NCBI GenBank assembly: GCA_003971905.1
Contig: RSEE01000113.1
Span: forward strand, 62,001-126,000
Origin: Moniliella sp. 'wahieum'
Taxonomy: Eukaryota
Direction of reading: 5' to 3'
Length of the DNA stretch: 64,000 nt
The notes below the pieces were generated by a model that was not told the DNA's origin, made no database searches, and worked only from the letters and a program-made list of their open reading frames with translations. The position numbers and the translations under genes are program-made. This document shows positions 1,900 through 62,130 of the stretch, one piece after another; position 1 is the stretch's first letter; each line of letters begins with the position of its first letter.

Positions 1900-3560
1900 T
1901 TCAACGTACGCGAAAGGACCCTCAAGGCCTCAACGCCTGGTCTTGACCTGCTCAACGCGTTCGACGTTCGACGTTCGACGTTGAAGCGTTGAGAAGTTCA
2001 ACGTCTCGAGAAGTGAGGTCAACGTATCAACGTTCAACGAACGGACATCGGTCACCGGTCGCCCCCGTCAGCGCTGGACGTTGAACTTCGAACAACGTGG
2101 AGCTCAAAGCTCGAGCTGCCTCAGAAGCGCTGAGGCTACTTAGCGCACAGCGAGCGTTCACATCAAGCTTCAAGCGCAAAAAGCTGTCACGTGTCAACGT
2201 AAACGTCAAAAGCACCAAAAAAAGCTTCACAGCAGAGCTGCGGATGTGGACACCACCTGGGACAAAACATTAGACGCACATGTGGGGTTCGTCGTTATAA
2301 CGCGTCGATACAGCACCCGTCCGGCGCACAACGCCCGCAGCGTTTCCGTACCAACTCCTCAACGCCGTTACGCGTAACGCGTTATCAGCGATTATAGATC
2401 GACAATTAATTGCCACCAGGATTACGAACGCGGTCGAAATTATGTTTCGCGCGCACGTTATTTTTTTCTATACAACCCCCGCGGCCTCAGGCCTCACATG
2501 CCTGACCTCAGGCCTCACATAGGCCACATCGATTCGTTATTTGAACACCGAAAAATATGAGGCCCATGTGGGGGCACGGACAACCCTTTGAGGAATGGAG
2601 GCTTGAGGCTTGAAGCCACAAGCGTTGGCCGCTGACAAATGGCGAAGGGAAGACCGGAGGAGTCTTGGGCGATAAGACGAAACGGTAAAGGAAGAGATCA
2701 GAGCCAAAAACGGGAACGTCCGTCCCGTATATATGTTGAGCAACCTTCTGCCAGTCGCAAAACTCTACGTAGGGGCAGCTCTAGAGCCATGGCACTAAGC
2801 CACTGTCAGAAGGAGCTTCGGCCCGACAGCAATTTTTACAAGCGCTGCAGGCGCTGAAGCCCTGTGCATGTGACATGTGAAGCCCTGAGATCCTGAGACT
2901 TGAGGTACCTCAGCGCCTCAGCCTGAGGACTCCGACAGGCGCTCAGGCCTCCTCAGGCCTCAGGCTGAGGCCAGAGGCTCATTCCAGTGAGACTCGGTTA
3001 TTAAAGCTTAACCCTATAATAGCTTTGATCGTATGTAGCTCTCCGCTCAAAGATAGTGTTGAAATTGAGGGGGAGATGTGGTGGAGCGTCGTCAAAACGC
3101 GTTACCATGAGGCCTGAGGCTCAGGCGCTCAGGCCTAAATACCTGAGTACCTGAGTACTCCGTGCACTGTGGAGTACTGAATTCCGGAACGCCACTTGCA
3201 GATGCCACTGTGTGAGCACAGTGACTCTACCCACTAGGGACTAAGCTCTAATGCGGGAGAGCATAAGAAGAGCGTAAGAACTGAGATCCTGAGATGTCAA
3301 ATCTGAGAGATCTGTGATCTGAGAGGCCTCAGGTTTCAGGGATGGTCAAAAGGCGATACCGGTAGTATATAGAGTGGCGTTTTGTCAGTAGCCTCTGTGG
3401 GGGTATGTTTCTTTGCGATTTGCATGATCTGTTTGGGGGGGGCTGAACATACGTAATGCCGATAAACGTTGGATTTACGTTGAGTACGTTGAACGTTAAA
3501 TATTAAATGTGCACGTTAAAAGTCGAAGCAGCTGAGCGCTGATGCACGCTGATGGATGAT
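1900..3560. repeat. Cluster of 7-bp quasi-palindromic arrays (ACGT, AGCT, GGCC, CATG, GTAC, GATC cores)
   Basis: Examples: TCAACGTTCAACG, TCAAGCTTCAAGC, CTCAGGCCTCAGGCTGAGGCC, CATGTGACATGTGA, CTGAGTACCTGAGTACT, GTTGAACGTTAA. Confidence 0.75.
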
Positions 3561-3991
3561 GGATATTGGAGAACAGAGTCGGTAGATCTTGAACTGTCCT
3601 GTCAAAGTCAGTGCTCTATTCTACTCAGTCCCCTTCGGGGTTGCGGCGTCTCTCGAGAGCAAGGCAGAAGGGTCTGAGTAGCTAGGCGATTTCATGTACA
3701 CGGTAGCACGGACCCTGTTGTGCCTATTTTGCCACGTCGGGTTTCTACTTCTGTTTTTGTATAGCATAGCCTCGTCTCTCTCGCCCCCAGCATTCCTGTT
3801 GGGAGTTGGAATGAACGCATCATCGTTCAGCTCCATGTGTATATAGTGTGCACAGTCCCCACCAATACCCCGTCGGACCGCCTCCATCCGCTCCCCCTTT
3901 CTCGGCCCACCTGGCCCCGAGGCTACCTCCTTACTCTCGATCTCGATCTCTCTTTCTACTCTACCTCTTGTCACACTCATTGTATCACAGC

Positions 3992-5430: not shown

Positions 5431-8176
5431 GGAGTTGTGGGGTCCCCACCTCTTCGCAAAACTGTACTATACACCTCGCTTCTTTCGTCTCCTTTCTCAT
5501 CTACTATCCTCTTTCCTGGAAAGTTGCGCTCGTTTCGTGACCCTAAAGATGCTCTCATGAAGAGAAAATGTGAAACGCCGGAGGATTGCACTCGGCTTCC
5601 CTCTTTCAAAGGTCTTATCGACTCTCTTTCCCATCTTGTCCTTTGTTGTGTTGTCGGTGCCCTGCTCTCCGTTTAACGTGCGGTTTAATATAGTCTACCG
5701 CTGCCTGTTGCGCTGTTTTTCCCCTCTCTTACCGTACCCCTTTTTTCTGCCGTGATTTATCGGCGCTATTCTTTTTGTATGATTTCTTGCTTTCTCTCTC
5801 TCAGTGTGTTGTCCTTGTCCCTGTCTCTCATGGTACTGCCTCTGTCGTCTAGGGCCCGTACGTGTCCGTTGGCGTGCATACACGGGCCCAGCCGTGCCAT
5901 GCCACGATTATCAACGAGATCGATGATGTTTTGGTGTATAGCCTTTGCGCTCAATCTTTTGTATGTTCCTCTCTCGATATCGATCTCTTTTCTGGTTTCA
6001 CGTTCATAGTGCATACCATATGTTGTGTTATCCTTTTAGAGGAACAAGGAAGGATGACAATGACAATGCCGAAGGTTGGGTGCTTTGGTGGGGCACATTC
6101 CTCAAGTGAAGGCCGGAAAGTAGGTAACAACGACAGCATGAGTAGCCACTGTGCCCTGGTGTAGTCCATCTGCGATGGGTGCCTCGTTCGGGGAGTTTTG
6201 ATCGCTTGACTCATTCTGGGCTACTCCTTTGCTGGCGCAACCTCGCTCAGTCATATAAAACCCATCTCATGCAAGCAGCGACGAATAATCTCGGAACCAA
6301 AAGTGATGGAACTATAGGTGTCTAGTGTTGGGGTAAGGTCGTCATTATCCCCCGGACCAAATCCTGGGAAGTTGCGGGATGCCCTCCCTCCCATCACCAA
6401 ATGAAACGGCTTGGTTGTGCTCATCAGAAAAGAGACCCAACTGTCCAGCCATCTTGTCCCTCTTTCGACCCCAGTTCATCAGTCCTACCTGCTTAGTAGG
6501 CATCACTGTCACGGGCTGCGGCGGACACGAGATGGTCCGACCCAAGCTAAGGCCCGCCTGCTCCACACATGCTCAGTAGAGCGTGCTCCGCAGGCCAACC
6601 GAGTGTGATGATGGTTGGCTAAATTAAGTATCGTGGCCGAAGAGCCATGCTCCGTGCGACAATAGTCGCCTCCCGCCCAAGTCCAAGTCGGCTGACCTAA
6701 ATAAGGCCGTCGAGCTTCCAGCGCGCCGTGTGTCGCCCCGTCCCCGTTTCCTTTTCCTTTCTCGGTCGTGCCTGGGGCGACCACCCCCGCTTTTGACTTG
6801 TCTTCCTTTCTACACCCCCCTCTTGTATCCGTTTCCCTTTTGATCTTGCCTGCTGTACCCCTGGTTGATGGGGACCTTTTCCCCCACCTTCCATTCTCGT
6901 CATCTCTCGTCCTTCCCACCTATCCTGTCCGACTCCTGCCCGTTTTCCAGCCAATTGGTCCAGTACAGGCAGCTTCCTCTTGTTAGCGTCCGACTTCTCC
7001 TCCGACCTCGTCCTCCAGCAATTCGTCAGTCCAGTCGCGCGATCCCTCCTTTGGTCGCGTCGATTTCCAGTATCCATCCATCTCAGTTGAGGCAGTGTTT
7101 GACCGCCGCCGCCTCCTCCCGTCCCTAAGTCCCGGAGGCTTCAGACACGTTACTACGGCCCAAGCCGGTGCAGACGCAGCCTTGCCACACGAGCAGCCGC
7201 CCCACCAAAGGCCTCTTCTCGTCCCTAGCTCCGCTCGGATTTCCAACTAGCCCAAGCCCAAAACTGCCGTGAGTCGACTTACCGTCGCCTAAGGGATCGT
7301 ACCCCAAGACCTCAGGGCGGGCCCCCTGGCGGCGCCCGCCCGTGACAATCACTCTTCTTATCCGCCTGGACGCTCCCTCTGCTTCCCAGGTACCCTCACG
7401 GCTAAATATAAGGCCTCCTCTGCCTCTCTCCTCAGAACGACAGCCTTCATTCCCCCCCCATTTCAGCGCACAAGTCCATAGTAGAGAGTCGAGATGTGTC
7501 GATGAGACTTGATTTTTTTGACAACAGTAAAGCTTTTGAAGCAATGGAAATGATGAGTAAGGAAGACGAGATAGTGAGGATCTCGATGCATGTGGCGAGA
7601 GATACGCCAATGATTAATGAGCCTCATTACTAGTTGGATAGGGTGCCATAATGGTATGTGAGCGTTTGGCCGAGATAATGATGCGCTTGTCTAAATAGTC
7701 ACAACGTTTGACGCTATGTTGAACAGCTTTTGGTGAGCGCTAACGTGTTCAACAATTGATTAGATTGGCTTGGGAGATTCGACAGGTGAAACGTCTCGTT
7801 TACTATCTTAGATCTTATCTCTGAAAAAGCCATGCAAAATCCGGAGCATAGTGTCGGACGCGTGACGGAGACTCAGGACCGAATGTACTGACTGATAAAT
7901 GGACACAGCTGCTGTACCAAGCTGTCGGTGTTGCTCCTTCTCTCGAGTCCAACACTTAAGCGCCCAGAGGGGGTAGGGGTGCAGGGTGGCAACGGAACGC
8001 TTTTGACACTGCGAGAAAGGATTGATTATCGATTACCAAAAAGTCTGCCATGTCATGCATGTCACTTGTCACCAACAGCACTCGTGACATCATGCATCAC
8101 TAGTCGCTAGCCACGCGCGCCACGAGCCCTGGAGTCCGGATATGGTCCTCGAGGATAATCGATAATGCAATCGCAC

Positions 8177-8299
8177 TGGTGGTGGTGGTTGTGGGTGGTG
8201 GTGTGGTGGTGTGGTGGTGGGGTGGTGGTGGTGGTGGTGGTGTGTGGTGGTGGTGGTGGTGGTGGTGGTGGTGGTGGTGGTGGTGGTGGTGGTAGTGGT
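8177..8299 (+). repeat. (GGT)n trinucleotide microsatellite
   Basis: About 40 imperfect GGT units seen directly. Confidence 0.95.
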
Positions 8300-9150
8300 C
8301 TGGGCCAACTAGCAACGCCTACAGAGGAGCATCAAGTGCATCAAGCTCCAAGCTTCAAGCAGTTGGGCGTCCCCAGGGGCTAAACCTGCGGAACAAAAGG
8401 AAAACAGGAGAGAGAAAACAACGCAACTTCTAGGCTTGAGGAGGAACTGGAGGGTAGTTAGCCCAAGCGCGAGCCTCCCGGTGGCTCAACCCCAACCCTC
8501 GGGAGAAGGCTGCCGTTTTGGGCCGGAGACCGGGCCGCCGGAGAAGAAAAAAAAGGACACCGGACTAACCCAGCCCCCTGCGAGCAAGTTCACTTGGCTC
8601 GCCCAGCTCACGCGTGCCATAGTGGGGCGGGGCGGGGCAGCGCAGTCCTAGTCAGCGCGGGGCTTTGGACCAGCCGAAATACAGACGCACGGGGGCAGCC
8701 TTGTCTCGCCTGCCTGTGTGCCACCGCAGCACAGGCGGGGCGGAGGCAGCGAGGCGCTGTGTGGGAACAGCGCTTTCACGCGTGACCGACGTGATGTGCA
8801 CCCTTGTACTGCCCCCCTGCCTGCGGCTGCGCGGCAGGGGAAGCATGCGGAAAGAAATCAGCCTGCGAGTCCTGAGATCCTGAGACCCCAGGCAGCCAGG
8901 AACAGGCGCACCGGGCGCACCCCCCAGCCACAGGGCCAGTGTCATCCCTTCATTCGTTGCACCCGCACCCGACGGCACCAGACTGCACCCAGCCCTCTCT
9001 TGGCTTGCCCCCACCTTGGTGCGACGCTCGGCTTGGCTTGCCCTGCCTCGCCAGCGCCAACTGCCCCCCCCCCTGGGCCTCCTCCCATCCGCCTGTCGCG
9101 CCCCCTGTGCCCACCCCCACCACCTCTTGCGTTTCGCCCGTTCTTTCGCC

Positions 9151-42404: not shown

Positions 42405-44995
42405 ATGTCCTCCCCCTCCCAGCCGCCGCCCATCCGCCTCCCCTCCTCCGCCTCCGCCCCTGCCCCGCCCCTCAGCCACACCCCGCGCCGCCCCACCGCG
42501 CCCTCGGAGCGCGACCGCCGTCTGTCCCCCAACACCTCCCTTGCCTCCCTGGCCAGTGTCACCAGCGCCTCCCACCTGCCTCCGCTGGCTGGCATTGGCC
42601 TCACCCCATGGGCGCGTCGGTCCGATTCCAGTCGTGTGCTCAGCACGCCGGGCATCATGACCATGGGCGGCCTCATTCCCTCTCCTTCCTTTACGCCCGA
42701 CATGCAAATTTCCGCCTCGGCACCCACCATGGCCTTTGGACCGTCGCCGCTACGTTCGCCCAGTGTGCGTGCGCACTCGCGTGGCCCGCACTCGTCTCCT
42801 ACTGCCTCCCCCTCCTCCTCCACCCTCATCCTGACACCGAGCACTCTTCCCACTCGGCTTCGCAGTCCCACTCGCAATCGCACTCACAGTCGCAGTCGGC
42901 TTCGCAGTCGCACCCGCGTGCCCCACCTTCGCGTTCCTCGTGCTCGTCGCGCTCGTCGCAGGGCGCCACGGGAGCGCTTCCTTCGCCGCGCGAAATGGCG
43001 AGCAAGATGCCCGACTCTCCGCATGCGGACCACCAACGTCTACCTGGGCTCGGACAACTACTGCACCCGCACCCGAGCACACGGTCGTACCCTACCCTAT
43101 CGCCGTACGCGCCGCGCGCACCGCTCACGTTCCCCCTCCGACGCAAGAGTAACCCCGACGATAGCGTGGGTACCGATGCCGATGCTGACGCCGATGCTGA
43201 TCCCGATGCCGATGCGGAAGGCGAGATGGACACTTCGGTGAGCCAAGAGCGGGTGACCAAGCGCGTGCACGCCCACGCCCCCGTCCACGCCCATGCCCCC
43301 GTCGAGAATGGGACCGAGAACGGGACCGAGAATGGGACTGAGAATGGGGCGGAAGGTAGCGATCGGTCGACGGATACGCAGATGGAAGCTGATGCCGACC
43401 TGGTCGGGTTGGGGTGGTACTGGATGCGCATGAAAAGCGGCACTTTGGCTTGGCACGTGGGGTACCGCGTGCCTCGTCGCCGTTACGTGCGCGACGGACG
43501 TTACCCTCGGCGCCTAAGCTGGGCAGCTCGGACCAAGGCCGGTTCGCTAACGTCCTCGATCTTTACCCGGACGAGGAACGCATGTTCCCACCGGCTCGTA
43601 CGCTCAGCTCCACAGCCCAAACCCAAACCCAAGCCCAAACTCAAGCTCAAACTCACGCCGCAACAGCGGCCCCGACACCAACGCCCACAGCCACACCTGC
43701 TGCGGCCGGGGTACCTACCGCGCTTCCTGCACCTTGCTACCCGAGCACCTTGTGGCCCGCTCCGTCGCCCAAGCGCGGGAGCGAGAGCACGAGCACAAGC
43801 ACGGGGGGGTACCCGCGCATGGCCGGCCTGTCAGGACTAGGTCTGACATTTGACGACGCGCCCGACCTGACCGGGTACTGGCGTGGCGAGGGGGGCAACG
43901 GGGCCGAGTGGACCCGCTCCTGGCCCGCTGCACACGACTTGCCCTCCCACTTGTTCCCGTCGGACGTGGTGGGTAGCGAGGCTGGTGCTGGGTCTGGATC
44001 TGGGCCTGGATCTGGATCTGGGTCTGGGTCTGGGTCTGGGCATGGCTCGGCATCGGCGTCAGGTGGTATGGCTGCGATGCACCTAATGGACCGGATGCAC
44101 CTCCATCCATCGCCCATGACAATGGGTACGTTACCGCTTCCGTCTCCTTCGACGACGATGGTGGTGATCGACTCGCCGGCTGTGGGATGGTCGTCGCTTC
44201 CGGACCCGAGCGGTGGGCCGAACAAAGCACAGGCACAGGCACAAGCACGGGATGGGCATGGGGCCAGGCGCGGCTGGGTCGCTAGGTGGGCAACCCGGCT
44301 CGATCGGTGCAGCGTTAGCAGCTGTCAAGCATATGGTGCTTACGCCTACGCCTACTTCGAACCTGGTACCTCTACCTAGTCCGAACCTACCTCTACCCCC
44401 ACCGAGCATGAACATGAACATGAACTCGAGCACGAGTCCGAACCCGCTCACGTCCAAGCCGACGGGATCTTTACGTGCGCAGTGCCAAGCGCGTTCAGCC
44501 GCGTTGGTACGTAGTACGGCGTGTGCATTCGAAGCGCACGCGCTGGCTGTGCGGACCAACCGTGCCGGTGCAAGTGCGGGGGGGAAACACGGTACCAAGT
44601 CGACGTCCAACCCCACCAGCAGCACGACGGGAAAACGGCGCGTTTCGTCGCTGTCAACTTCGTTCGAGGGCAGCAGCACAGACGAAGTCCAGTCCCCCTG
44701 GGGCGTGTTTAACCTCAACCCGAAAAAGGCCGGGTGGAAACCGCTTTTCCCACCGGGCATTCGGCCTCCGACGTTGGCTAGTGTACCTGGTTTGGCGGAT
44801 ACCGATGCGGCAGGCGCGAGGGCTAGTTCGTTCACTCCTGCCTCTGCTCCCGATTCCGCGCTACCTTCTGCTTCGCCTGCCAAACGGATCCGTCTCGACC
44901 GCCCGAAAAAGACAAAGAAGGTCGTTTCGAGTACCAAGCTGCCCAAGGCCCAGGCTAAACCTACCTTGTCCCTCAAGCCGACGAATCGGGTGTGA
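42405..44995 (+). CDS. Large Ser/Pro/Gly-rich low-complexity protein of unknown function
   Basis: CGCCATG after a pyrimidine-rich leader. Overlapping long + ORFs (42189-43241, 42371-43840, 43414-44379, 44213-44995) chain by frameshifts, with DA, ENGT, QTQA and GS repeats. No domain recognised. Confidence 0.55.
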
Positions 44996-45215
44996 CATGT
45001 GACATGGGCCAGGTCCATGGCAAGAAAAGTCAACTGAAGCTTGAAGCTTGAAGCTTGAAGGCGGGTTGAACAACGTTGGACGTTGGACGTTGGACGTTGG
45101 ACGTTGGACGTTGGACGTTGCGTTGAGGATGTTAGGTTCTGGTACGGTGAGGCCTCTCGGCCTGAGGAGAGGGCTGTTGAGTTGAACGTTAACGCGGTTG
45201 ACGTCAACCGTGTTA
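44990..45215. repeat. Consecutive heptamer arrays (TGACATG)2, (TGAAGCT)3 and (TGGACGT)6
   Basis: Seen directly immediately after the stop codon at 44995. Confidence 0.9.
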
Positions 45216-45932
45216 CGGTCACCCTTTGTGCAGTGCCTGTTGTTGTGTCGTTTGTCGTTCGTTTCCGGACTGGGTCTGAAGTCTCCAGTCCTGGCATTGG
45301 CATGGTTGTCGTCGGGTAGGATCCAAGTATATACGTTGTGAGGTTGTGGCGTTCTAGCGTTCTAGCGTTCTGAGGGTCGGGGGTTCTGGCCCCTGTGGCA
45401 GCTGTAGGAGACGGGCGCAGCCGACCAACCACAACCAACCAAACAGACAGACAAACAGACAACCAAATAAGGATCCACATGCGTCGTTCTGAGGTCTGAT
45501 CTGGTCGGAGCAGGAAGGGGGAGGGAGGGAGGGGGGTATACTTTTACTATTCCCGTATTGAGGCGTAGATGCTGCGTAAGGACAAAACATAGCTGCGTAG
45601 ATGCGTAGATGCAGGTCGAAGTGCCACGGTAGAGTGGTAGAGTAGAGTGTGAATATTGGATCGACCATCGGGCCCAAGCGGAGATGGTACACGTTGAAGG
45701 ATAGCGTGTATGGATGAGATGAGATGGGATGGGATGAGGGGGTGCTGGAGCAACAACTTGAAGGCATGATGCTTGCCTAGTGACTGGATCGTGTCTGGCA
45801 GAGAGACTGTATTACCTGCATGGGCACCGCTGCGGTCGTCAGTCAAGGAGGGAGGGGAATGATTAACGAGGGAGAGAGATGGCAGCGAATTCCAAGCGGT
45901 TGTGTTGGTGCACGTTCGGTCTCATGACTACT

Positions 45933-46020
45933 CGTCGTGCTCATCCTCGTTCCCGTTCTCGTGCTCATCCTCGTTCTCGTGCTGATCCTCGTTCTCGTGC
46001 TCATCCTAGTTCTCGTTCCC
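45933..46020 (+). repeat. Degenerate ~18-bp tandem repeat (CTCGTGCTCATCCTCGTT)
   Basis: About four units visible. Confidence 0.8.
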
Positions 46021-48182
46021 GCACCCGTCCCGTTTTCCCGTTCCCATTCTCATATCCCACCGGCCACGGGGCAAGGCAAAGGATGACGTATACCGCCAAG
46101 CCGCAGGGAGGGCGGGGGGGAGGGGGCAGTACGGGCTGCCCGCTCTGCCATAGTATAATGTGCAAGTCACTCGCAGTGAATTTTCGCTGTAGTCACTTGG
46201 CCTGAAAGTCCTACTAAGTAGCCTAGTCATGTTGGGTCGTCGCGATGAGCTTCATCCGCACGCCTCTTCACTACATCAGCCATACCTCTATCATCTGATA
46301 GACCTCAGCCTCATCGATCATCAGATGAGGTTCATTCGCGCGACAGACAACGAACGTACTGCGAGCATATGGGAGGCCCGGCGGGAGCGGTGGTAGATCG
46401 GTTGTGGGGCCATACCGAGTAGCGGATCGGTTACACGAGGAACATATGTGTGTGCACCCTCTAATAGCTGCGTGCGGAAGCGGGGACCGATCATCGATCA
46501 TCGAGTATACCAGCTCGATAAGATCTGGATAATTCGCTACTTAGTACTTATCATGCCAGATGTTTGGCACTCCCCGCCCAGCAGGCGGGCGGGGGGCGGG
46601 GTTTGATCTGGTTTTCAATTGGTGGAGCGAACCGAGCATGGGGGTCGGGACCCCGACGAAGGCGGCCCGCTGTGGCAGTCGGATAAATGTATAGGGTACG
46701 TAAGTGGGGAGCGGGGAGCGAGGAGCGCAGTGGAGGGGGTAGTCCAGAGAAGGATCTGCCCATCGTTGTGCCCGTTCGGAGTATGCCGGTGGAGCGATGG
46801 GCGGAATGGAGAAGGGAGATGGCAGCGGGCGCTGCGGAAAAAGTGGGTGCGAGTCGAGTACGTACTGTTGGGTATTACTGAGTATAGAGAACTGCCGAGG
46901 GAGAGCGACGCCAATGATCGAATGATTGAGGCCGATGATCGATGAGGACGAGGCCGATCGATAAGGCCTATGGCCTTAACACCCTACTCCTAGGCCACAC
47001 AGGTCACATGTCATGCATGTCATCATCCATCGCGCTGTAACCATATACCTTGGCATGGCGTGGCGTAGTGCGTAACGCCACGGCCTGTCAATGTCACAGG
47101 CGAAGCCCCTTCTAGATCAACCGCCAGTAGCCGCCCAAGGAGTCATAGTCCAGTGGGGTTCTAGGTACCATGGGGCGTGACCGGGTGACCGGGTGACCGG
47201 TGACCGTTACCGCTTACCGTTGTCGTTGCTGTTGCCGTTGCCGTTGCCGGGGACGCGGGGACCGGATGGAAAACTCAAGAGGGGAGTATTGAATATTGAG
47301 TCTCAATGGCGCGAACGTCGAACATGGAATTGGGGCCAATTACCTACCGTTACATGTTACACGATACCTATCAACCACTGGGGCGCGACGGGGCACGACG
47401 GGGCACGACACAGAGTGACGTCAGTGGCGTCGCGCTTGCGTTGGCGGGGTGGACGTTGGGCGCAAGGGGTCGGGAGGGGCCGGGGAGACCCGGAGGCGGC
47501 GCGGCGCGGCGATAGAGACGGCGACCGAGACGGAGACGGAGACGGAGACGGAGACGTGCTGCGTAGTGCTGCGTAGTGGGTGCGCTGGGCCGCGCCAGGG
47601 CAAGGGCGGCCGAGTGCGAGCAGCTGCGGAGTGGTCGGCGACAGGGGCCGGGTGCGCCCACGTCGCAGGCGTCAGGCCTCAGGCCTCGGGGTGCCTGCCA
47701 AAGTGGGTCTCCGCAGGCCTTGTGCCTGGCAGCCTCAGGCGGCACGCCAGGACAGGCAGGTGGCCGAGGCAGGGCGGGCACGTGTGCGGTGTGGACGCGT
47801 CGCAGTGGGCCCAGATGCGGAGACGCGCCCTGGAGCGGGGAGGACCGAGTAAGGAGGAGGCTATTCGGCCTTAGGCCTTGGGCCTTGGGGCTTTGGCTGG
47901 GCCAGGCCATACGCTGGTCCACTGCCTGGCACACCTCCGACGCCCTCTGCCCTCCGACGCCCTCCGACGCCCTCCCCCCCCCCCAACGCCCCTCTGCCCC
48001 CGCCCCTCGGCACGGCGTTTGGGTGCCCGGCAACAACATATAAGACGTCCCCGTGGCGTGCACAGACCACACTCCCAAGTCCTCCCTCTCCCACACATCC
48101 CTCGTGCGCGCCATTGCCACTTTCCCCATTCCCCTTCCACCACCCCCACCCAACCACCAACCCACCAACCCACCATCCGAAC

Positions 48183-49371: not shown

Positions 49372-49999
49372 TGCGCCTATACCGCGTATGAGCAACCAAG
49401 TATCTCCCTCCCCACCCTGATGGGCCTTTTCTTCGATAACCATATGCTGTGGAAACCCTGATCCCAGTTGCGATGCAATAACGACCAGAACAATACATGA
49501 TTGATGGACGTGACTGTGCGCTCCTAGGAACGGTTATAGAGAATGGCTGTGAGCATGGTCTGTGGTACCCAGTGGTACTAAGGCCACAAACGATTCACCT
49601 TACTCACCGACTCTTGAAACAATAAGGGTGGGCTCAGGTGGGGGAACGGACGGCTGCTGAATATTAAGCCGCGGTCGCGGCAGGGGGTCCATCGCTCGCC
49701 TACCCTCTCTCCATTCCAACAAGCGCGACAGGAAGAACCACTAGCACTCTCTATGTAGGCCAACGCAGGACGAAGAGGGACCAAGTCACACGCAGGCGTG
49801 CAAATCAGGAACAGTAAACGAGGTAGGAGTCAGGATGGATAGCTTTGATGGAGTAGGGAAGATATTTGAATGGAAATGGAGAGTGCAGAGTAGAGAGTGC
49901 AGAGGGGGAGTGGAGAGTGGTACTTAGAGGGGTACAGTAAAGTGTGTCGATGAGATTGGAGATGAGACAACTCTTCGGAGATGAATAATCGATCATCGA

Positions 50000-50440
50000 T
50001 TACATCTTGCCGCGCATCGCAACGTAAAAGATCTTGGCTTCATCGGGCGAGTTGAACCAGAGCGGTGCCCCATTCTCAATCACCAGCACGTCACCTGGCT
50101 TGGCGGTAAACTCTTCTCCCGTCTCGAGGTTCTTCACCTCCAGCGTGCCCGACAGAACAATCTCTACACGACGACAACACGAGGCACGAGGTGGTTAGTA
50201 CCCGCTTTTCTTCGCATATGAGGCTGAAGAGAGGAGAGGAGATGAGAGGACTAGGGAAGAGGACGCACTCTGTTCCTTGTAGGTATAGGTATAGGTCAAC
50301 CCTTTAGGGTCTTTCTTCTGGATGTAAAACCCCGAGGTCAAGTCGTTAAGGTTGGACGAGGCAATGTCGCCCAGAAAGGCGCCGGTGCCAAAGTCGCCGT
50401 ACTTGGGCTCGGGTTGCGGGTTGACCTTGAGGAGAGACAT
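50000..50440 (-). CDS. Small EutQ-like cupin protein
   Basis: Exons 50440-50269 and 50163-50000 (intron GTGCGT..ACTAAC..TAG) give ..LTYTYTYKEQKIVLSGTLEVKNLETGEEFTAKPGDVLVIENGAPLWFNSPDEAKIFYVAMRGKM*. Confidence 0.85.
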
Positions 50441-50551
50441 AACGAAAAGGGGACAGGAAAACGGGGAATAAAAGGAAGCTTGAAGCCTGTGGTGGTAGGT
50501 GGTGGGTGGGATGAGGAGACCAAAAGGTGCTGCCGGATCGGAGAGGTGGGG

Positions 50552-50559
50552 TATTTATA
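50552..50559 (-). promoter_or_regulatory. TATA box of the cupin gene
   Basis: TATAAATA on the minus strand, ~110 bp upstream of ATG 50440. Confidence 0.6.
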
Positions 50560-53500
50560 TACTTACGCATGCGCTCTGCTACCGAGACGATTGAAGCTTG
50601 AAGCTTCCATGTCGTGCCCAATCTCTATCTTCGATGGCTAGGTGCAATCAGTACGCATGGCGGCCATGTGGGCGTCGGAGCGGGTGTGCGCAGGCGGAGA
50701 GCTCGGGCTGAGCAACGCCACAATATCTCTAGAGCCAACAGTGGGCCTCTCTTCCTTCGAGTGAGCCTCGGGCCGACTGGGATGGGACGGACACGGATCC
50801 GTTGCGCTCGCCGCCTCGAGACTAAGCGAGCTCGGCACAGATGATCGATGTAATGAGATCAATGGGATTACGAGACGTTGGATGGGAGCGATTGGAAGGA
50901 GATGGATGGATGGATGGCTCAGCACAGAGGAGATAGCGGCGGAGGAGACTGGTCGCAGGAGTTAGAAACCAACACGGCTACCCCTCCTGCATGATTGGAG
51001 TTGCCCCTTGCCTTTCTGTGCCTGTGGCCCCGCCACTATGCATCCCTTCCACCACATCTACCGACTATCTAAGATCTAATCTCTCTCCCATGAAAATCGC
51101 ACAGCAATTAAGCGCGCATGCACTGGCGCCGTGCTGCAGGTCGGGTGACGCGGACCGCTGGTCACCCGTCACGCGTCAAGCTTTAAGCTCCAAGCTTTAA
51201 ACGTAAACAAGTACAGGGTGCACTTGGAGGCATACCGCGCGCTTAAGCCGTGCAACCATTAATCAACGTCCAACGTCAACAAACGGATGGATGAGAGATT
51301 CGACTATGGATTACCGATTTCTGATTAGATTCGTATTGCAAACAATCATTAATCATGATTGAAAGCAGAGCGTCGTGTTTTTCCTGATATGCTGTTGTCT
51401 GCTCTTTTGGGTCGCAAGTATGCACAAGTATACACCCGACAGTATGGTGGAAATGGTCCAAACGTAATGCGTAATCGACGTAATCCGTGCTCTGAAATCC
51501 CTTGTTTGTACCCGCTGGGACAGCCGTCCAACACATGTGCACAGGTGGTCCGCAGCGCAGAGGGCAAAAGAAAAGAACTCAAAGAGAGAAACGAGCAGTC
51601 GGAGTCTGCACACCATCTCATCAGTGATACTTTTTAGCCGTGTTGACAAGTCTCGGTGTCATATATACTGTTGTGGCCCATCAACCACGGTGCGAATTCT
51701 CTGCACCCACCTCCATAGCCCAACACAACACACAACACAAGACAACACAACACAACACATACAGCTTACCTCTATCGATCCCAACGACCTCCGTGCTGGG
51801 CAGTATTACCTTTTCCTAGTACTCCGTCTTGGCCGTCTGTGGAAGGACTTTTTGAGCCGGGGTTGCGAGTTCCGCAGCCTACCCACAGACGTGGAGGCTG
51901 TATACCCCTCCGCCATCCCGTCATCATGTCGCGCCCCACGTTCCACAGCGAAGCTACTAGATACGTTATTGCCCCCTCCTCCGACGGCGACCACGGCATA
52001 TGTCTTCTTCTTGGCGCGCGCGCCCCAGATGTGCATGGCACCGTTCGTTGCAAATTTCTCTGGACCACACCTTTGCTCAGCGCCTTGGCGCTCAGTTTGG
52101 GGGACTTCCAGCTGATCCTCAAGTCCATATGTGCACGTGAGACGCCCCCGAGATGAAGTACTCTCTTGTTTCGTTCCTCCCCGTGACTGGGCCCTTCGCG
52201 TAGTTGTGCATCCTTGCAGTACTTTCTGGCCGTCTTGCTCTATCATGCACTTCTTGGTGCAGACGTGCTGAATACTGGGCCCATACCTTGACACAGTCCC
52301 CAAGCTGGGAACGGCCCAGGTTCTTGTCGGTGAGAGATTATATTGTACCACACCGATCTTGGTCCTTGGCTGTTCAAACTGCGGCAGGGACAACGCCCAG
52401 GCACATCAAAAAGCTCTTCCTCTACAGATCGTCCGCCTCGAATTGGTTCAGCTCGATGATCCCGGCCCTTGTTTTCGGGAGAGCAATTCCCTTCAGGGAT
52501 GAGCGAGTGTGGATGGGCGGCCTCTCATCAATCTTCTCGAACTTGATCATGTCGGCGTCACAAGAGCAGCAGAGTTGTTATACGATGGAGTCCATAGCGC
52601 CCGCCGCGGCGCTTCCCCAGTCGCACGCACAGCATTGTGGCCCTGGATCGCGTGATCCACCTGCCTCTCGAGCTTCGCTTGGATCTGGTCGTTACTTCTC
52701 TTCACACCCACTGTGAGCACTGGCAGAAGTTCCTCCGAAGCGCCGGCGCCAGACGCGCGTCTCCTTTTTCTCTCCTGCTCCTCTGCGGTTGCATCCTTTC
52801 TCCTCATCACCGCCCCTCTCATTGTGCCCGTAGCAACCGGTATCCTATCTCTGCAGCCAGCACATCGCGTGCTCTGCGCCACGGCCAACAGTACCATCTT
52901 CTTCCCTCTGTCCACCAACATCACCATCGTTGTTGCCTGCACCGCCTGCTGCCTGCCTTCCTCGTCCCGCCCCCATCGCTCGGTCCTCCTCGCCTGGTCC
53001 GCATTGCTGCCGTAGTCTCCATTCCCTCTCCCGCCACACTCCGTCCTCTTCGCCTCGTCTGTATCGCTGTTGGACGCCCCCTCTGCCCCTCGCCCCGTCC
53101 CGCTCTCACTGTCTGCATTGCTTCTGTCGCACGTGTTCTCTTGCCCGCCAGCGCTCTGTTGCTGACCCGCCTACACAGACTCCCCCTCGCGGGCCATCTT
53201 GTCCTCGTTTCATCTTGTCCGCAGCGCCGTCGTACGTGCCCGCTTCATCCGCTTTCCCTCGCTTCTGCTGACCCACACGCTGACGTTGTGGGGAGCATGG
53301 GTGATGTGCATGCCCCGTTTCGCTCGCCTTCGACCCACCCTTGTCCGTCTGCTCACTTTGGCTGTTGTCTCGCTTACATGGTTTGCCTCGCCTGTGGTCC
53401 TCTCACTTGGATGGTCTGCCTTGCTATCGTATGTCCCCCGTCCTTCGCGCGTGGAGTTGTGCTGCCACTGACACTATTTGGCCAGCTGCTGCATGCACGG

Positions 53501-54750: not shown

Positions 54751-54822
54751 TTGCACCTGCACCTGCACTTGCACTTGCACTTGCACCTGCACCTGCAATG
54801 CACCCGCATTTGCATTTGCATT
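54751..54822 (+). repeat. (YTGCAC)/(TTGCAT) hexamer microsatellite
   Basis: Seen directly just past the EOS1 stop codon. Confidence 0.85.
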
Positions 54823-57402
54823 TTAGTCACTTGCGTCGGGCATCAGGGGCGCCGGGTACATCGAGTCGAGCAGCAAGACCCACATGCTAACGAAGCTAAG
54901 GCAAGCCAAAGAAAGCAAGTTACGCTTCACAGCCACGTCCCAATGGAACACGCGGCGTCCCGTGATGGTCAAGGACTGGGTGTAGGTGCGTGTGCGTGTT
55001 CGGGGTAGTGCATGCGAGGGTGGTTGGGGCGCAAGTGAGTCTGAGGGCACGCCGATGCGGCCGGCATGACGAAGTGCGTCGTGGGCACGAGCGCGGGCGC
55101 GCGAGGCGGCGTACAACGCTCGACGGGTAGGTGCGTCGTACGCTGCAGCGTTGGTGTGGGAGTGGGAGTGGGAGTGAGTGTGAGTGTGGGAGTGAGGGTG
55201 GGAATGGTGGTGGGAGTGGGGCCATCTAGGACGTCCAGTTTCGCCGCCTCCGACAACGAGTGAGACGGCGAGGGAGGAGCGGGCGGCCAGGCCGGTCGGA
55301 GGGGGCAACGTGCGTGGACGCGGGGAGACCAAGAGCAAATCCGCTTGCCGATCCACAATGTTACTTGTGATCCAGCGTACCAGGACATCGCATGAGGAGG
55401 TAGTTACACTGGCTACCACCCAAGCTGCCAACGGCTGTGTTGGCCCGAAAAATTTGTGCAGGTTGATTTGCAACAAGGCGCCGCTGATGGCTTGGAGTGC
55501 GACTAGACGCACGAGCGACGGAAGCAGTCCGTAGTACAGTAGCCAGCGACGTAACAGCAGCGTGGTCATTGACAAAGCATGAAACGCCGTTGCCATCGAC
55601 TGGATTCAACCAACCAACCAACCAAATAAACAAACAAACCAAAGCATCAAAAGAAACAAAAAGAACCCGCCCGTCAGTACTCAGTATTCGTCTCTCATTT
55701 CGTCGCAACTCAGCAACCAAGCACCAATCTTTTCACACGTACCCAACCGGAAGCCGCCAAATAGTCCAGTGCGCCCGGGGCAGAGCGGTCGCCGATCCGG
55801 CGCAGATCTTGGTTGCGCAACGCGACCATCACGCATTTCCGCCACAAGTACAACGTCCCCAACAACCCGGGCACCGACGCCAACAGACGCAGTGGGTGCA
55901 ACACAAAAATGTGAACCAGTACATCGTCCTCCTCCTCCTCCTCTTCTGCCGCCAGAGCCTCTACCATTTCATCCACCTCGTCCACCTCACCACCTCACTT
56001 CATCCGCCTCATCCACTTCATCCACCTCCTCCTCCGTCACATTCACCGCGTCTCCCTCCAACGTCGCAGCCTCCCGATCGGGGTGGAGGCCAGGAACCAA
56101 CTCGTCGTCCGATCCCTCCTCTTCGGGGGTAGACGTTGGACCGATCCCTGGCACAGCCTGGTCCGGTACGATGACCGTTGCCCTGGTTCGAGGGGGGCTG
56201 TAAGGTGGAGGTGGGGGCGGGGAGGACGTGCGCTCGGGGGTCGGAAGGATCGGCGGGATCGGCGGGATGGGAGGGACCGAAGTGACGGGGGGTGCGGAAG
56301 GCGTAGTGCCTGGTGCAGCGATCCCCGTTGACAGGGCCGAAAGCGTGGAGAGGTTGGAGTGCGGGAACGCCGCAGCGGACGGCGACGAGGCGGGGCGGGT
56401 ATCGTGTACGGGGGTTCGACGTCGTCGCGTGCCCGAGGCTAAGCGGACCGGGGGGGACAGTTGAACGGGCTGGGTGTTGGAGCGATAGCGGGTGGACCCT
56501 CGTGAGTGACCTGCAGGGGCCGGGTCCAGCTCGTCGAGAGACGAAGACGAAACGGGTACGGGTGGCTCGGTGGATGGGAGAGGTGAGCGTCGGGGAATAT
56601 ACCAGGGGCCGAGGCTACGCTGCGGACGGAATAGCCCGTAGGGGAGCGTGGACGTGTGCGGACAGAGCGGTGGCTAGAACGCGTGTCTCTGTGCACATCC
56701 CCTAAGGAAGAGGACGTCGGCAGGTCGGATCTTGGCACGGAGGAAAGGGAGACAAAACGGGAAGATCCCAGTCGGTCTGCCTCTTTGCGCAGCTCGGCCT
56801 GTGCCGCGCCGAGGCCGGCCACGATGCGGTGCCGATGGGAGCGAGGCGGGCGGCTGCTGCTGGCCTGTTCTACCTGCGGGAGGGGGCGGCGGGCAGAGCG
56901 GGAGGGGTGCGGGAGGGACGAAGAGGAGCTGGAGGGGGGGGGAGGCGATGATGGAGTTGGGCGTGCGAGGAGCAGGAGCAGGAGCAGACGCAGACGCAGA
57001 CGCAGGCGGGTGAATGCGGAGGTGAGAGAAGGAGTGGCGCGAGGCGAGCAGCGGCGGGGGTGGGGGAAGCGGCCCGGGGGGCGCAGGCGGGGTGGGCGCT
57101 GCGACGACGGAGGGAGGCGGCGGGGTGGCACGGGCGGAGGAGGCGGGGGGAGGTCGGAGGCAAGGGACGAGCTGCTGGCGGCGGGGCTGGACACGGGGCC
57201 GGCGGGGAAGGAGTGGGCGCTGCTGTAGGTGGCAGCGTCGAGGTCGAGGGTGAAGGCGGGCGCGGGGACGGGGATGGGGAGGGCGGTGGGGGTGTCGGGG
57301 GGCGGCGAGGGGGGCATTGGGGCGGCATGCGACGGGCGGTGGTGGGGATGCGGGTGGGGGCGGTGCCGACGCGGCTGGTGCTGCTGCCGAGAGACGAGGC
57401 AT
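54823..57402 (-). CDS. EOS1: ER membrane N-glycosylation/oxidative-stress protein of the Eos1 family
   Basis: HPLRLLASVPGLLG, DYLAASGW|SMATAFHALSMTTLLLRRWLLYY, LVRLVALQAI, WITSNI and RRVFHWD..SFVSMWVLL. Intron 55600-55742. The long Pro-rich N-terminus has frameshifts, so the start is inferred. Confidence 0.75.
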
Positions 57403-58297
57403 GCTGCTGTCCACGCGCCCCTCTGTTGTTCTGCCGATGCGGTGCGGCTCCGTGGCCCAGCCAGCGGCCAGCCAGCCCTGTCCCTCCCTGCCTCGCCCCA
57501 CGCTGCCCGTCCGCCCCCGCCCGCTTCCTGCCACTTTCAATTTTACTTGCCCCCAGGACTCTTCAGGACTGACTTGGCGCTATACACATGTGCTTTGTTT
57601 GCTTTATACACCCCGTTGGGGTCCCTCAAGAGGGGCGATGTGCGTGAACGCGGTAGACCTGGCTCGAGGCACTGCTGCTGCTGGCCACGCCGACTGGACG
57701 TGTGCCCGCTACACCGAGGGCACAAGAAGATCTGTCTCCCTTGCACATTTGGTGGGCCAAGCACCTGCCTCGTGGAAGAGGCACACCAATGAGGGCAGCC
57801 GCAGCGGCTGTGTGTGTGGAGATGTGGAGACGGCGAACGGAAAGCAAGAAGGGTGGTGTGGTGGTGGCGAGAGTCAAGTGAGCCTCCGTCTATGCAAGAC
57901 CCGGGCAAGACGGGATGAACGAAGCCCTGCTGGAGCCAAACAAAGCATCCGTCGGTCGCAGAGCCTGCGGAAACGGAGACTGCCAGCAAAGCGGAACCAG
58001 GCGGAACCACAGTGCGGCTGGTGCAACATCCATGATGCATGATGTCCTGTGTAACGCATGATGGGGGGTCGTCTGAGCTTATGTCAGCGCTCAGCTTCCT
58101 GCAGCCAATGGTGCTCATCTAATGGTTACGGCATGCAGCATGATGCATGAGATCTGAGAAGGGTCGATGATCGATAAACGCATTGGGCGCGGCGGCCCCG
58201 TTCCGCCTCTGTTCCGCCCCCCTTGTTTGTGCCTCCGGGCAACCTTCCTCTGATTGCATCCCCACCACTCTGACCCCTGCCTTGCTCGCCTACGACA

Positions 58298-58395
58298 TGG
58301 CGACGAGAGTGGGATTCGAACCCACTCCCCAGAAGACTGCGGGCTCAACTTACTCAACGTTCAACTGAACTGAGCACAATGCCAGTTCGACCGTC
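58298..58395 (-). pseudogene. Degenerate tRNA-like gene (Leu/Ser class, long variable arm, possible CAG anticodon and intron)
   Basis: Minus strand 3' half CGCAGTCTTCTGGGGAGTGGGTTCGAATCCCACTCTCGTCG-CCA has a perfect T arm and B-box. The 5' half is recognisable only as GACG..GGCATTGTG-CT-CAG. Confidence 0.6.
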
Positions 58396-60217
58396 GTGCT
58401 ACTACTACTGTCGCATACGTCACATGTCACATGCACACGTCATCTCCGTCACGTGCTTGTCGCCTCTCGCGCGGGTAGGCTGGGGCAGCCAGCACTAAGT
58501 AAAGGTAGAAGAGCTTCTTGAAGCTTGAAGAAAGCATGGAGTGGGGCAGCGGAGAGACAGCGCCGGGAAAAAGGACTGCCCAAGCGAATATTGAATTTGC
58601 TTTGCGCCTAGGTACTAGGCAGCCTTGGTCCGAGGGGCACTGGAGTCACATGCGCATGTCACAGGTCACAGGTCACTACGTCACTAGTCACATGCATCAC
58701 AGATGAATTCAACGACTAGCTTGATGCGTGACGCGTGACGATGGCAACGCCCCGTCCGGCTCGGAGCCGCATGGAGCACCAGGCATGGGGGCAGAGACGG
58801 ACCAAGTGTCCTCCTACGGCGGCGGGGCGGGTGTCTAAGACACCGGCCGAACAAGTGCTGCGCCTCTGCGGCACGCGTTACGTTTGCATCGGCCCCATGG
58901 GAAAATGGCAACGTTGGGCCCCAGCCCTTGTAGGCTGTGCCTGCTGTTGCCTGCTGTGCCTGCTTGCCTCCTGTGTGTGCTTGTCTGCTGTGCCCCATGC
59001 ACACTATACCCTACCACTGCGCCCTCTTTATAGGATGCCGTCCTTGCCGAGATACATCGATCCTACATGGTACCCCTGTGCATCGAATATTGATTGTTCT
59101 GAGTGGCTGAGCCTCAGCGCAGCCCTCAGCCTTAAGCGCTTAAGCATAGACGTGGAGCAGCCGCGCTTGGACCATCGATCAGCGGCTCAGCGCTCAACGC
59201 CAGCACTCCGGACGCTCAGGGCCGTATAGTTCCATCCAACTAGCATCATCGACATCGATCATCGAGACTGGACAAAATGCATTTGTTCCATGGCTGTGGC
59301 TTCAGCCCCCACCTCTCTCCCCGCCACGCATCGTGCCTTGGCGTGCTTGCTCCACTCGTCTCGACCCGCATGCCCCCTGCCGTAATGTCGATGTCCCACA
59401 AAGTACTGAGACCGCCGCTTTTGAAGCTGCACTAGGGACTACTACTACTCATGCATCTGCATCATACCTCGTCCTATGTCACGCATTTTTCCTGTTGCGT
59501 TATTTGGAGGGAGCATACGATGGAAGATGGAGTACTGCCATGTTGACCCTGGGGGCGAGTGTGGCGTGAAGCAGGGCGTGAAGACGGTAGAACGGGGAGG
59601 CTGGGAGGAGCCTTGGTCTGTTTTGGCCTTGGATGGCAACATTCCATTGCACCGTCCACCCCGCCCACCGTGTCTGAGTTCGGACGCATGACGCGTGACA
59701 TTGACACAAGAGTATGTAGGCGGTTCGCGGCTGTCGCAGCAAGCCGCGGGGGGTCGCAGCGACCGCAAAGCGACCGCATCCCAGTCTACCCAGGCCGACC
59801 CCTAGCCCCTCGAGCCCACTAGCCCGACACCTGCTCTCCTGCGCCGGGGCATGCATCATGCGTCACGGGCAAGCCTACCGCGTCACGCATCAGTACCATC
59901 GATATCGGTACCAGTGCAAATGTCCCCACACATTTCGTCGGCGTCTCAGCCCAGGCCACTAGGCCACTGCTGACGGCCAGCGCGCGTCAGCCCCGTCCTC
60001 TTTGATCTTAGAACGCAAGGCCCGAGGCGTACAAGCACGTAACCGCGTAACCCCACGTACAACCCCACATACAACCCCACCCCGCCTTTCTCGGGTTTAT
60101 GCAGCTGCGGAGGCCAATTGCACAGCCAAATTTCGCCCTTGAGGTTGAAGACGAGTAGACAATTAGACATAGGACTCTGTACCCTCCGTTCGCAGTTCTT
60201 TTACCTTCTGTTTCCCT

Positions 60218-62130
60218 TCAAGCTCGCGTCAAGCTTCAAGCTTCAACGTCAACCTCTTCAACGTTCAACGTTCCGCGCCGGCAGTCCATATTCCATGGGC
60301 ACCCGGACTGAAGGTCGGCACAGTAGCGCTTGGCCTTTCTAAACCGACGCCGCGCCATTGTGCACCACATAAGGTGCCTCATCGGCATCGATCATCGATC
60401 ATCTGTTTCCCCACCGGCCAGTCTCATCCGGTTTGAGAATTTCGGGGCGACAGGCCACAGGCGGGCCCACGCTCCCGCGACCGCCACACCGGGCTGGTGT
60501 CGCATGTCACATGTCAGCAAACGCAAAGGCTTGTTACTAGTTACTAGTTACTGTTAGCCGCCTTTTTCCTCTCCCCTCTCCCCTCGTAATGATCCTGGTT
60601 TCCCAGCGACGTCCTAAGTGCAGTTATGCAATGGCAGAGGAAGACAGGAGCTGGGTTGAACCCAGACTGAGGATCAGAAGAAGAAGAAGAAGGTGAAGAA
60701 AGGAGGGCGGCACTAGGCCAGGGGATAGGGATACTGGTGTGGTGCCCGGATGAGTAAGAAGGTCAGGAGTGCCGCGGAGGTGGCTGGCCCATAGGACCCT
60801 GGTCAACACCTCGACCCTTCGAGGGCGGGTGGGTTCCTCTTGCGGCTTGCCAGAGGAAGAAGGAGCGTGCCTGCCTCCCCGCGCGCCTGCTGAGCGGCTG
60901 AGCTCAGGAGCGCTCAGGCTGAGCGTCGAAGCGTGGATATTGGACGTAGCGCGTAGAGCGAGGCCGCGGGTAGGATGTGAAAATGTGAGACGGGGGGGAC
61001 GTGGGGCCCCGTGCGATCTCCGGATCTCACACCACAGATCTCAGATCTCAGGGTTTGTGGTGTCAGTTTTCCGACCGGACGCGGACGACGCACTGCCCCT
61101 GCCAGCAAAACACAAGTCACGCGTCACGCGTCACTGGTCACTCGCACTGCACTCGTTCCCAGTACCGGCGACGGGCGACGGGCCTCTCCTTCTCCTTGTG
61201 GCGCTGGGCAGTGTGCGATGCATCATGCATCATGTGCATCATGCGCCATGCGCCATGCGAGGCGGGCGCACTCGTGCATGTCACGGGTCAGTCTCCTGAG
61301 AAGGAACGCCACGCACGGCGCCTGTCCTTCCCGGGAGAAGCCAAGAAGAGAACAGTGGGCAGGTGGAAAAGGCAAGGGACTAGGGACGCGGCAAGCGAGA
61401 TGCTCGATGCGGCTTCAAGCTTCAAGCTTCAAGCTTCAAGTTCTCTTCAAGTTCTTTAAGCTTCAAGCGCTTCCAACGCGAGCGATTCAAGGTACACCTC
61501 AGTACCTAGTACACCCCCATCCACTTTTGTCATGAAGCTTGAAGCTTGAGTACTAGGTACTGAGGTACTCGCCATTTTCGGCCGACGCTTCCGGGCTGCC
61601 TGCGCATCGGGAGGAGAACAGGTGGGGCGCTGTATGTTCAGCTGAACACGTTGGACGTGCAACACTTCAACGTTCAACGTACGGTGAAGCCTGAGGCTCA
61701 AGCCTGAGGGTTAGCTGAGGGGTTGTGCGTGGCGGATAGCGTGTAGTGGGAGGTCGTCTGGCAGTTCATGCATCATGTGCATGCGTCCCCCGCGTCATGG
61801 GTTAGACCCTCCCCTCCGTGGCGTAACGCGTAACTATGCTAGTGCGGCGTCGCGTGACGCGTGAGGCCCGAAGCTCGTGAGCGCACAGCCAGGCTCAGTT
61901 TCCGGGGGGCGGGATATCACACACACACACCGTCATCGATCATCGATCATCGATCATCGTTCCCCGACCTCGGCCTCATTGGTTCATCGATTCGATCCGC
62001 CCGCACGGGCACCCTGCGAGTCATTGGACAAGTCACAGTTGGCGCTGGGCGCGGGGAGCCGTCTCATGCCTTCTCCGGCCGGGGCACTGAGCCACTCAGT
62101 ACTCAGTACTCAGTACTCATACTCACTGCT
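60218..62130. repeat. Cluster of 7-bp quasi-palindromic arrays upstream of the MFS gene
   Basis: TCAAGCTTCAAGCTTCAACG, TCAACGTTCAACGTT, TTACTAGTTACTAGTTAC, TCACGCGTCACGCGTCA, TGCATCATGCATCATG, (TCAAGCT)3, (TCATCGA)3 and (TCAGTAC)3. Confidence 0.88.
60588..60808. repeat. Dispersed repeat, copy 2 (see 1545-1761)
   Basis: Collinear similarity with 1545-1761 in the same orientation. Confidence 0.85.

Follow-up and report, generated by a model that had tools for sequence, protein, structure and literature searches.

Hairpin-derived footprints of DNA transposons are already known as such. Flank hairpins have been described for hAT, Transib, RAG and MULE systems (PMC5499845); Pso2 and Artemis open hairpins 2 nt 3′ of the apex, and Pso2 is required for repair of Ac/Ds excision hairpins in yeast (PMC3299998). 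In RAG coding-joint P nucleotides and Transib hairpins (PMC5499845, PMC3299998) the palindrome has its centre between bases, at the border of an intact flank, two palindromic bases remain as from an opening 2 nt past the tip, and one end stays intact while the other is trimmed. Footprints of Ac/Ds (hAT) in plants and yeasts likewise hold hairpin-derived palindromic bases between target copies at the empty donor site (PMC5873905). Here we describe a 7-base pattern in the fungus Moniliella sp. 'wahieum', found in a stretch of 64,000 nucleotides (positions 62,001 to 126,000 of contig RSEE01000113.1, here C113, from the 69.5 Mb, 223-contig assembly GCA_003971905.1; hereafter the window), together with a low-copy transposon family with CTCACTG ends. 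Units of the pattern are very probably excision footprints of an EnSpm/CMC-like cut-and-paste transposon with a 7-bp nnT(C/G)Ann target duplication (in its looser form nnTNAnn), and the repeats that they build most likely record past departures, not the binding of proteins.

Compared with RAG and Transib products, the scars described here are a near-single outcome in two mirror forms, 7-bp and TNA-centred, inherited and accumulated genome-wide. Footprints of Ac are centred on the complement of the end base and are more varied (PMC5873905), and Ac duplicates 8 bp where the CTCACTG family duplicates 7 bp. By its inverted ends containing CACTG, its short subterminal repeat arrays and, less certainly, a DUF4218-like region, the family resembles EnSpm/CACTA elements and the CMCT clade, which includes Transib and RAG1 (PMC12730594) along with CNIRT6 and CNEST of Cryptococcus neoformans (PMC12730594, PMC12810828). 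Its ends are, however, two bases longer than the CAC- ends of EnSpm/CMCT, and its duplication is 7 bp, against 2–5 bp given for the CMCT clade in PMC12730594 (3 bp in CNIRT6, TA in CNEST). The family works like a CMCT element but is not filed as a member, because its termini do not read CA..TG and its duplication falls outside the 2–5 bp range. The accessible portion of PMC12810828 reports no footprints for CNIRT6 or CNEST.

In the window, TSA-N4-TSA (S being C or G) occurs 155 times against 52.0 ± 7.3 expected from 60 local order-3 Markov simulations and, with a palindromic core, 89 times against 4.7 ± 2.3. The initial annotation had described tandem arrays of a TCA or TGA triplet, sometimes TTA or TGG, followed by at least 12 different 4-bp palindromes. 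All 12 named cores were recovered no more than 5 bases from where they had been placed, two further ones (TTAA and ATAT) were seen, and the ACGT array at 45073 is indeed built on TGG. T(C/G)A is the commonest scaffold as proposed, but the actual scaffold is T-any-A: T(A/T)A triplets with a palindromic core number 21 against 0.8 expected, and the six remaining self-complementary triplet classes (2–8 each) stay close to expectation. With any middle base, 124 TNA-palindrome-TNA sites are present, using 14 of the 16 possible cores. The 7-base period holds as well, with a lag-7 match fraction of 0.2915 against 0.260–0.281 at the remaining lags up to 40, multiples of 3 excepted, and with 74 exact period-7 runs against 6.8 in shuffles; genome-wide, the 17-mer TCAAGCTTCAAGCTTCA occurs 2,280 times and its reversed control never. 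Arrays do exist, although most units are single events.

The two triplets around a core are direct copies. Their middle base is identical in 100 of the 124 window sites and, in a larger sample of 421 rule sites, the same in 364, complementary in 23 and otherwise different in 34; among the 89 sites above, 45 are TCA..TCA, 37 TGA..TGA and 7 inverted. Symmetry around the core thus ends after 3 bp. At least one flank matches the core at 108 of the 124 sites (one side only 79, both 29, neither 16).

None of the 124 sites lies in coding sequence (14,637 bases marked from open reading frames, ORFs, most with Pfam hits), where about 28 would be expected under an even spread, in line with the absence from conserved exons noted earlier, and sites cluster in long stretches upstream of genes, a gene context assessed by eye. 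Such a distribution would suit selected binding sites for an abundant dimeric factor, which the initial annotation had offered as one origin, but it is also expected from insertion into open DNA followed by loss from exons. The rarity of inverted forms and a core dictated by the flank both speak against selected sites, units arise at plain sites in one haplotype only, and conservation between haplotypes (72 of 124, 58%) does not exceed that of neighbouring 10-mers (59%), which together make a binding-site origin highly improbable. Selection for binding need not be invoked to explain the sites, and some single arrays may have been put to use later.

The haplotypes are those of C113 and contig C31, which is collinear with the entire C113 at 6,173 substitutions in 174,901 aligned columns (3.5%), so that the assembly contains two diverged haplotypes; this pairing served for before/after comparison of sites. 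Junction statistics come from 623,698 bases in 103 pieces, a non-random sample made of C113, part of C31, repeat-surrounding loci, 30 loci chosen by a TNA-containing pattern and five element copies, and genome-wide counts are pattern searches only.

Scars follow a simple rule. In the right type, abTNAxy becomes abTNA-xy-y'x'-TNAxy, the core being copied from the right flank; in the mirror left type it becomes abTNA-b'a'-ab-TNAxy. Exact scars at TNA amount to 176 right-type and 187 left-type, two forms at equal rates, against 1–9 at ANT, CNG and GNC. Clean indels between C113 and C31 (8 exact bases on either side, n=1,149) include 18 of 5 nt, 39 of 6 nt, 41 of 7 nt and 6 of 8 nt. The 41 seven-base indels comprise 15 new TNA scars at non-palindromic sites, 4 unit additions to arrays, 3 half-site cases of the rule (TGC, TCC, TAG), 5 plain tandem copies and 14 others; the same rule accounts for 1/32, 1/18, 4/39 and 0/6 indels of 4, 5, 6 and 8 nt. 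Without an outgroup, the direction is read as gain of a unit, since strong enrichment is seen for the longer of the two alleles.

A replication template switch or an end-joining polymerase stepping two bases backwards and five forwards, with no transposon, could be imagined here, given that short tandem duplications are common at all periods and that plain 7-bp duplications are not TNA-specific (55 against 68–97 at control triplets). It leaves the fixed length, the TNA centre, the 1:1 mirror forms and the identity with a transposon target unexplained, and iterated fold-back, the form put forward in the initial annotation, is excluded because it would alternate TCA and TGA, as so few sites do; we regard such a template switch as very unlikely. 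Minor junctions that hold both full 7-mers plus 2 palindromic bases are, by comparison, TNA-specific (0.53–0.83 per 1000 TNA sites, controls 0.01–0.08), so a 7-bp duplication is indicated by the scars alone.

A transposon family with this target is present in the genome. A pattern search found on C11 a pair of ends 4.85 kb apart with 83-nt inverted arms, and a search with the C11 end returned five full copies of 4,849–4,970 bp, one 378-bp miniature inverted-repeat transposable element (MITE) and several single ends. All copies have ends CTCACTG..CAGTGAG, whose outer CT/AG bases are inverted and hence belong to the element, and 9-bp subterminal repeats lie near the inverted ends. A perfect 7-bp target duplication flanks five of the six two-ended copies: GTTGATG (C34), GTTGATG (C29), CATCAAC (C35), GATCATG (C23) and GATGATG (the C20 MITE). 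Single-end junctions read GTTCAAT, GATGAAG, CATGATG/TATGATG, CATCAAC, CATCACC, TGTGAGG and CGTCACT. T(C/G)A stands at positions 3–5 in 12/12 independent junctions, obtained with no selection on the flank, against a background of 0.029 per site; the two junctions of C11 were excluded from the 12 because that copy was found via a TNA-containing pattern, and L163–L167 (L163 reads TGG) were excluded as doubtful family members. The C11 copy (L117:2241-7089) has two different TNA junctions and was therefore not scored as a duplication; relative to C54 (L133) it lacks 60–70 bases that lie between two target-like sites, the pattern expected when one-ended transposition deletes adjacent DNA.

Two older insertions are common to both haplotypes (C16/C4 and C23/C8) and the five full copies carry 1–14 private substitutions each in 3.8 kb, so the family was active before and long after the haplotype split. 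In the shared old insertion at L127:2192-2193 (C8) versus L125:2003 (C23), one allele has two extra bases between target and element end. They repeat the last two target bases in reverse complement and would be explained by a hairpin joint that closed again or by simple slippage of CT. The ends (L117:2241) can be seen as an EnSpm-like CACTG plus two outer bases and the duplication as 3 + 2 + 2 bases, and we speculate that a two-base shift in cutting position could link the longer ends and the 7-bp duplication.

One element ORF may resemble the DUF4218 region of EnSpm transposases. In Atlas its first hit is a DUF4218-named cluster (0.96, recognition below threshold), and phmmer gives two hits, E 3e-4 (P0121) and 9e-4; P0121 in turn aligns at E 1e-16 to an ORF adjoining a Tnp2 relic on C34. 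In L117:4397-4771, an ORF that P0121 does not match significantly, a CxxC can be seen. Three relics of Tnp2-like transposases, in none of which inverted ends were detectable, lie at L082:8181-9985, L084:7259-9531 and L116; for the relics on C17 and C34 and a relative on C62, no inverted ends and no longer relatives were seen. The large C113/C31 indels contained no element with a 7-bp TNA duplication, and a scan of the pieces sampled by then for a 7-mer with inverted ends returned arrays only.

An assembly or base-calling artefact has next to negligible probability as the source of the pattern. The assembly does seem rich in small indel errors, with 658 of the 1,149 clean indels being 1 nt, which suggests an unpolished long-read assembly, and private indel columns exceed substitutions in four of the five element copies. 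Nonetheless, 72 of the 124 sites are identical in two separately assembled haplotypes, coding sequence carries none of them, and the geometry equals an independent feature, namely the target duplication of a transposon.

Scar length corresponds to two 7-mer copies centred on N with four junction bases from one side, which fits excision after a 7-bp duplication. By analogy with RAG and Transib, the transposase would seal each flank into a hairpin with no base lost, and a host nuclease of Pso2/Artemis type would cut each hairpin two bases beyond its tip. Two 4-nt 3′ overhangs that do not match each other would result, and end joining that retains either of them would then yield the two mirror scars. 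Alternatively, 6-nt overhangs may be held by terminal A-T pairs, with identical products that are indistinguishable here. The genome has a gene with a DRMBL domain (E 1.3e-4). Tc1-style footprints built of element ends were considered and rejected, as the core follows the flank. The initial annotation came close when it tied a hairpin opening 2 nt from T(C/G)A to a transposase, although an ordinary mobile transposon fits best, not the domesticated enzyme that it had named as a possibility. Within this scheme, the 7-bp duplication and its consensus, the before/after scar alleles, the equal mirror rates and one occupied/scarred site are direct observations.

Microsatellites are generally born and grow by slippage, and the long pure arrays at 45035 and 45073 likewise differ by whole units between haplotypes, being 21 nt and about 190 nt longer in the second; differences of so many units point to slippage. 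What sets the present arrays apart is that their first two units would come from one programmed event and that two-core arrays need more than slippage. Each scar would hold a new symmetric target (y'x'-TNA-xy) in phase, so that a repeat visit adds an identical unit whichever side wins and a visit to the outer target copy adds a second core. From two or three units onward, some arrays would be lengthened by ordinary slippage, and arrays on TGG, TCG or TAG may reflect half-site targets or a mutated unit. The scars themselves would be neutral by-products that survive only outside coding sequence.

Three allele pairs are readable. The site of the C35 copy is a single CATCAAC in C46, and this empty site fixes the element boundary and the 7-bp duplication; the C20 MITE, compared with C22 and paralogous repeats, faces a single 7-mer with a 10-base deletion beside it. 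In the third pair the C29 copy, with GTTGATG on both sides, faces GTTGATG-CA-TGATG in C53, a right-type scar with both flanks matching. Scarred thus is one of three (C29/C53) and empty are two (C35/C46, C20/C22). The left flank of the C34 copy has no match in the second haplotype, and the C23 site is deleted in C8. Genome-wide, the GTTGATG target bears 113 right-type and 123 left-type scars, with 4 and 0 in the controls. Six GTTGATG sites among the matches listed (counted by eye) carry both scar types side by side and, in 11 of 22 two-core arrays, both flanks are matched; site reuse is therefore real, and a coincidence at C53 plausible.

Several points weigh against excision of this family as the source of the scars. 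Its 14 private substitutions in 3.8 kb mark the C29 copy as young, whereas its flanks are about 5% diverged from C53; being far younger than that divergence, it probably did not leave the C53 scar, which would record an independent visit rather than departure of the C29 insertion. About 2% of GTTGATG sites are scarred (236 of about 13,000, the total being extrapolated), more at reused sites, so one scar in three allele pairs is modest evidence when taken by itself. Known hairpin footprints are more varied than these (PMC5873905), and 14 of the 41 seven-nt indels match neither the rule nor a tandem copy. The 18 ORFs of the element copies gave no Pfam hit, no intact transposase was found, one frame break is common to all five full copies, and searches of the genome for an autonomous partner returned none. 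Young copies prefer TG/AC/TC beside the triplet, a narrower choice than that of the scars, so older or other families must account for most scars. Finally, there are some 15 element loci for tens of thousands of scars.

This last disproportion, roughly thousandfold, would suit cutting of T-N-A with a 7-nt stagger by the same transposase or a domesticated relative, in abortive or hit-and-run fashion and with no resident element, as would the missing autonomous copy and the existence of two Tnp2-domain relics without detectable inverted ends. We consider it unlikely. A palindrome at the edge of a full 7-mer copy requires duplication fill-in and then a hairpin, which amounts to insertion followed by excision, and the junctions with both 7-mers plus 2 palindromic bases are specific to TNA. 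Numbers do not demand it either: new scars appeared at one per about 410 substitutions or more (15 per 6,173), which needs only an ordinary jump rate of few copies. Assuming 2e-10 mutations per base per generation, a rate like that of yeast, and 35 Mb, this translates into ~1e-5 jumps per genome per generation. Exact scars occur at about 0.6 per kb of sampled DNA, and scaling the 363 found in 623,698 bases up to the whole assembly gives about 40,000, an order of magnitude from a non-random sample; long persistence and a fixed scar would be enough to account for that number.

The broader flank choice of the scars could instead mean that most were made by a transposon not found here, of hAT7 or Kyakuja type, and that the CTCACTG family merely shares its target. 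Both types are described in basidiomycetes with 7-bp duplications (PMC12730594), a likeness in length and host with target sequences outside the comparison; they belong to other transposase families, and Kyakuja has no inverted ends while those of the CTCACTG family are long. Junctions of Ac type are not enriched (1 at TNA, 4–7 at control triplets), older CTCACTG members show further flanks (GG, CA, CT, CG, CC, AG), and neither the hAT dimerisation domain PF05699 nor the KDZ domain PF18758 matched in the genome, in searches that are uninformative on absence. We hold this source to be decidedly unlikely, and excision of CTCACTG-type elements, older members included, remains the preferred origin.

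We consider it somewhat more likely than not that a distinct RAG-related (CMCT) lineage, with CTCACTG ends and a 7-bp TNA duplication, has long persisted at few copies and that its near-invariant scar, by rebuilding the best target in phase, wrote tens of thousands of marks and became the main source of promoter heptamer microsatellites, a readable log of jumps and, from within the genome, evidence for EnSpm-type exit via lossless flank hairpins. Usual footprints are varied and hard to recognise, leaving past cut-and-paste activity mostly invisible after element loss; a fixed scar can be counted, oriented and dated, which would turn the genome into a record of transposon landings and offers a specific route for the birth of tandem repeats. 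It also yields a testable prediction on EnSpm/CMC excision, with a candidate element whose 7-bp duplication is unusual for the clade, and a caution that motifs which are enriched and biased towards promoters can have a mutational origin instead of a regulatory one. What this analysis adds is the target consensus across the family, the pairs of alleles and the spectrum of junctions. Our literature search, with Repbase, subscription journals and the supplements of PMC12730594 outside its scope, found no genome-wide near-invariant footprint that seeds microsatellites; it found no EnSpm-like element with this target, though those sources or a figure of PMC12730594 may describe one, and no statement on how EnSpm/CMC elements excise. 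For the related heptamer of Ustilago intergenic DNA that the initial annotation had brought up (ATTCACG/ATTCGTG), none of the papers listed dealt with it, judged by title.

A metagenome scan covered 80 AGCT-array loci (323,787 bases) and returned 8 other-core scars, or 0.025 per kb against 0.89 in the window; no second genome with the same grammar appeared among those loci. At L195, L201 and L240 the AGCT arrays are followed in phase by further TGA-N4-TGA units; in one or two of these the palindromic core differs, too few to show the same grammar.

Along the window, whose genes are fungal (Zn2Cys6, OPT, MFS, Med13, L36e, EOS1), sites and arrays are distributed as follows, with strand given where a feature has one.

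648..1224: four sites; the array at 648 is one unit longer in the second haplotype.
2027..3542: 14 clustered TNA-palindrome-TNA sites that precede a Zn2Cys6 gene on its upstream side, with a compound array at 3490 (ACGT then ATAT).
7611..8785: seven clustered sites, located upstream of a gene for an MFS transporter.
24701..24842: five clustered sites, flanked by the genes for a GTPase and an AMP-binding enzyme.
24701-24710: unit with core CGCG; the second haplotype has the plain 7-mer, without the unit.
29955..31606: cluster of 21 sites upstream of a longin-domain gene.
31029..31038, forward strand: single right-type scar with core GATC, already cited in the initial annotation, new in the window haplotype; the other has plain GCTGAGA.
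31069..31092, forward strand: compound array of a left-type (AGCT) and a right-type (CCGG) scar; the original site was CT-TCA-CC and two separate hits are needed.
38928..39943: seven clustered sites, located upstream of a gene for dephospho-CoA kinase.
44993..47681: cluster of 14 sites; the units at 46541 (GTAC) and 47350 (CATG) are new in the window haplotype.
45035..45120, forward strand: two pure arrays, TGAAGCT x3.7 and ACGTTGG x6.9, longer in the second haplotype, with growth by slippage.
49658..51355: cluster of 8 sites, with a compound array at 51169 (CGCG then AGCT).
55674..55683, forward strand: isolated right-type scar with core GTAC, new in the window haplotype.
58033..62119: the densest cluster, with 40 sites flanked by genes of the EOS1 family and of MFS type; the unit at 58084 (GCGC) is new in the window haplotype, a compound array lies at 58141, and half-site scars at ~60285 and ~60950 are new in the window haplotype.

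Among named proteins, the best relatives of the window's OPT protein come from basidiomycetes (about 55% identity), and an OPT transporter exon has 106 matches in the assembly, a large family even for two haplotypes. Other repeats are also present. Positions 51964-53809 hold a dispersed repeat with at least 38 other loci at 75–90% identity, which no test run tied to the CTCACTG family, and the second haplotype lacks about 880 bases at 53032-53913. Near window position ~3610, an 848-bp TGT..ACA repeat, with its duplication of 5 bp, is present in the second haplotype, and the C20 MITE sits inside a member of the same repeat family. Positions 29560-29630 hold an 85-base dispersed repeat (at least 40 loci) that resembles a retroelement end, and two inverted copies of it flank a 3-kb inversion at C113:141.3-144.2 kb relative to C31.

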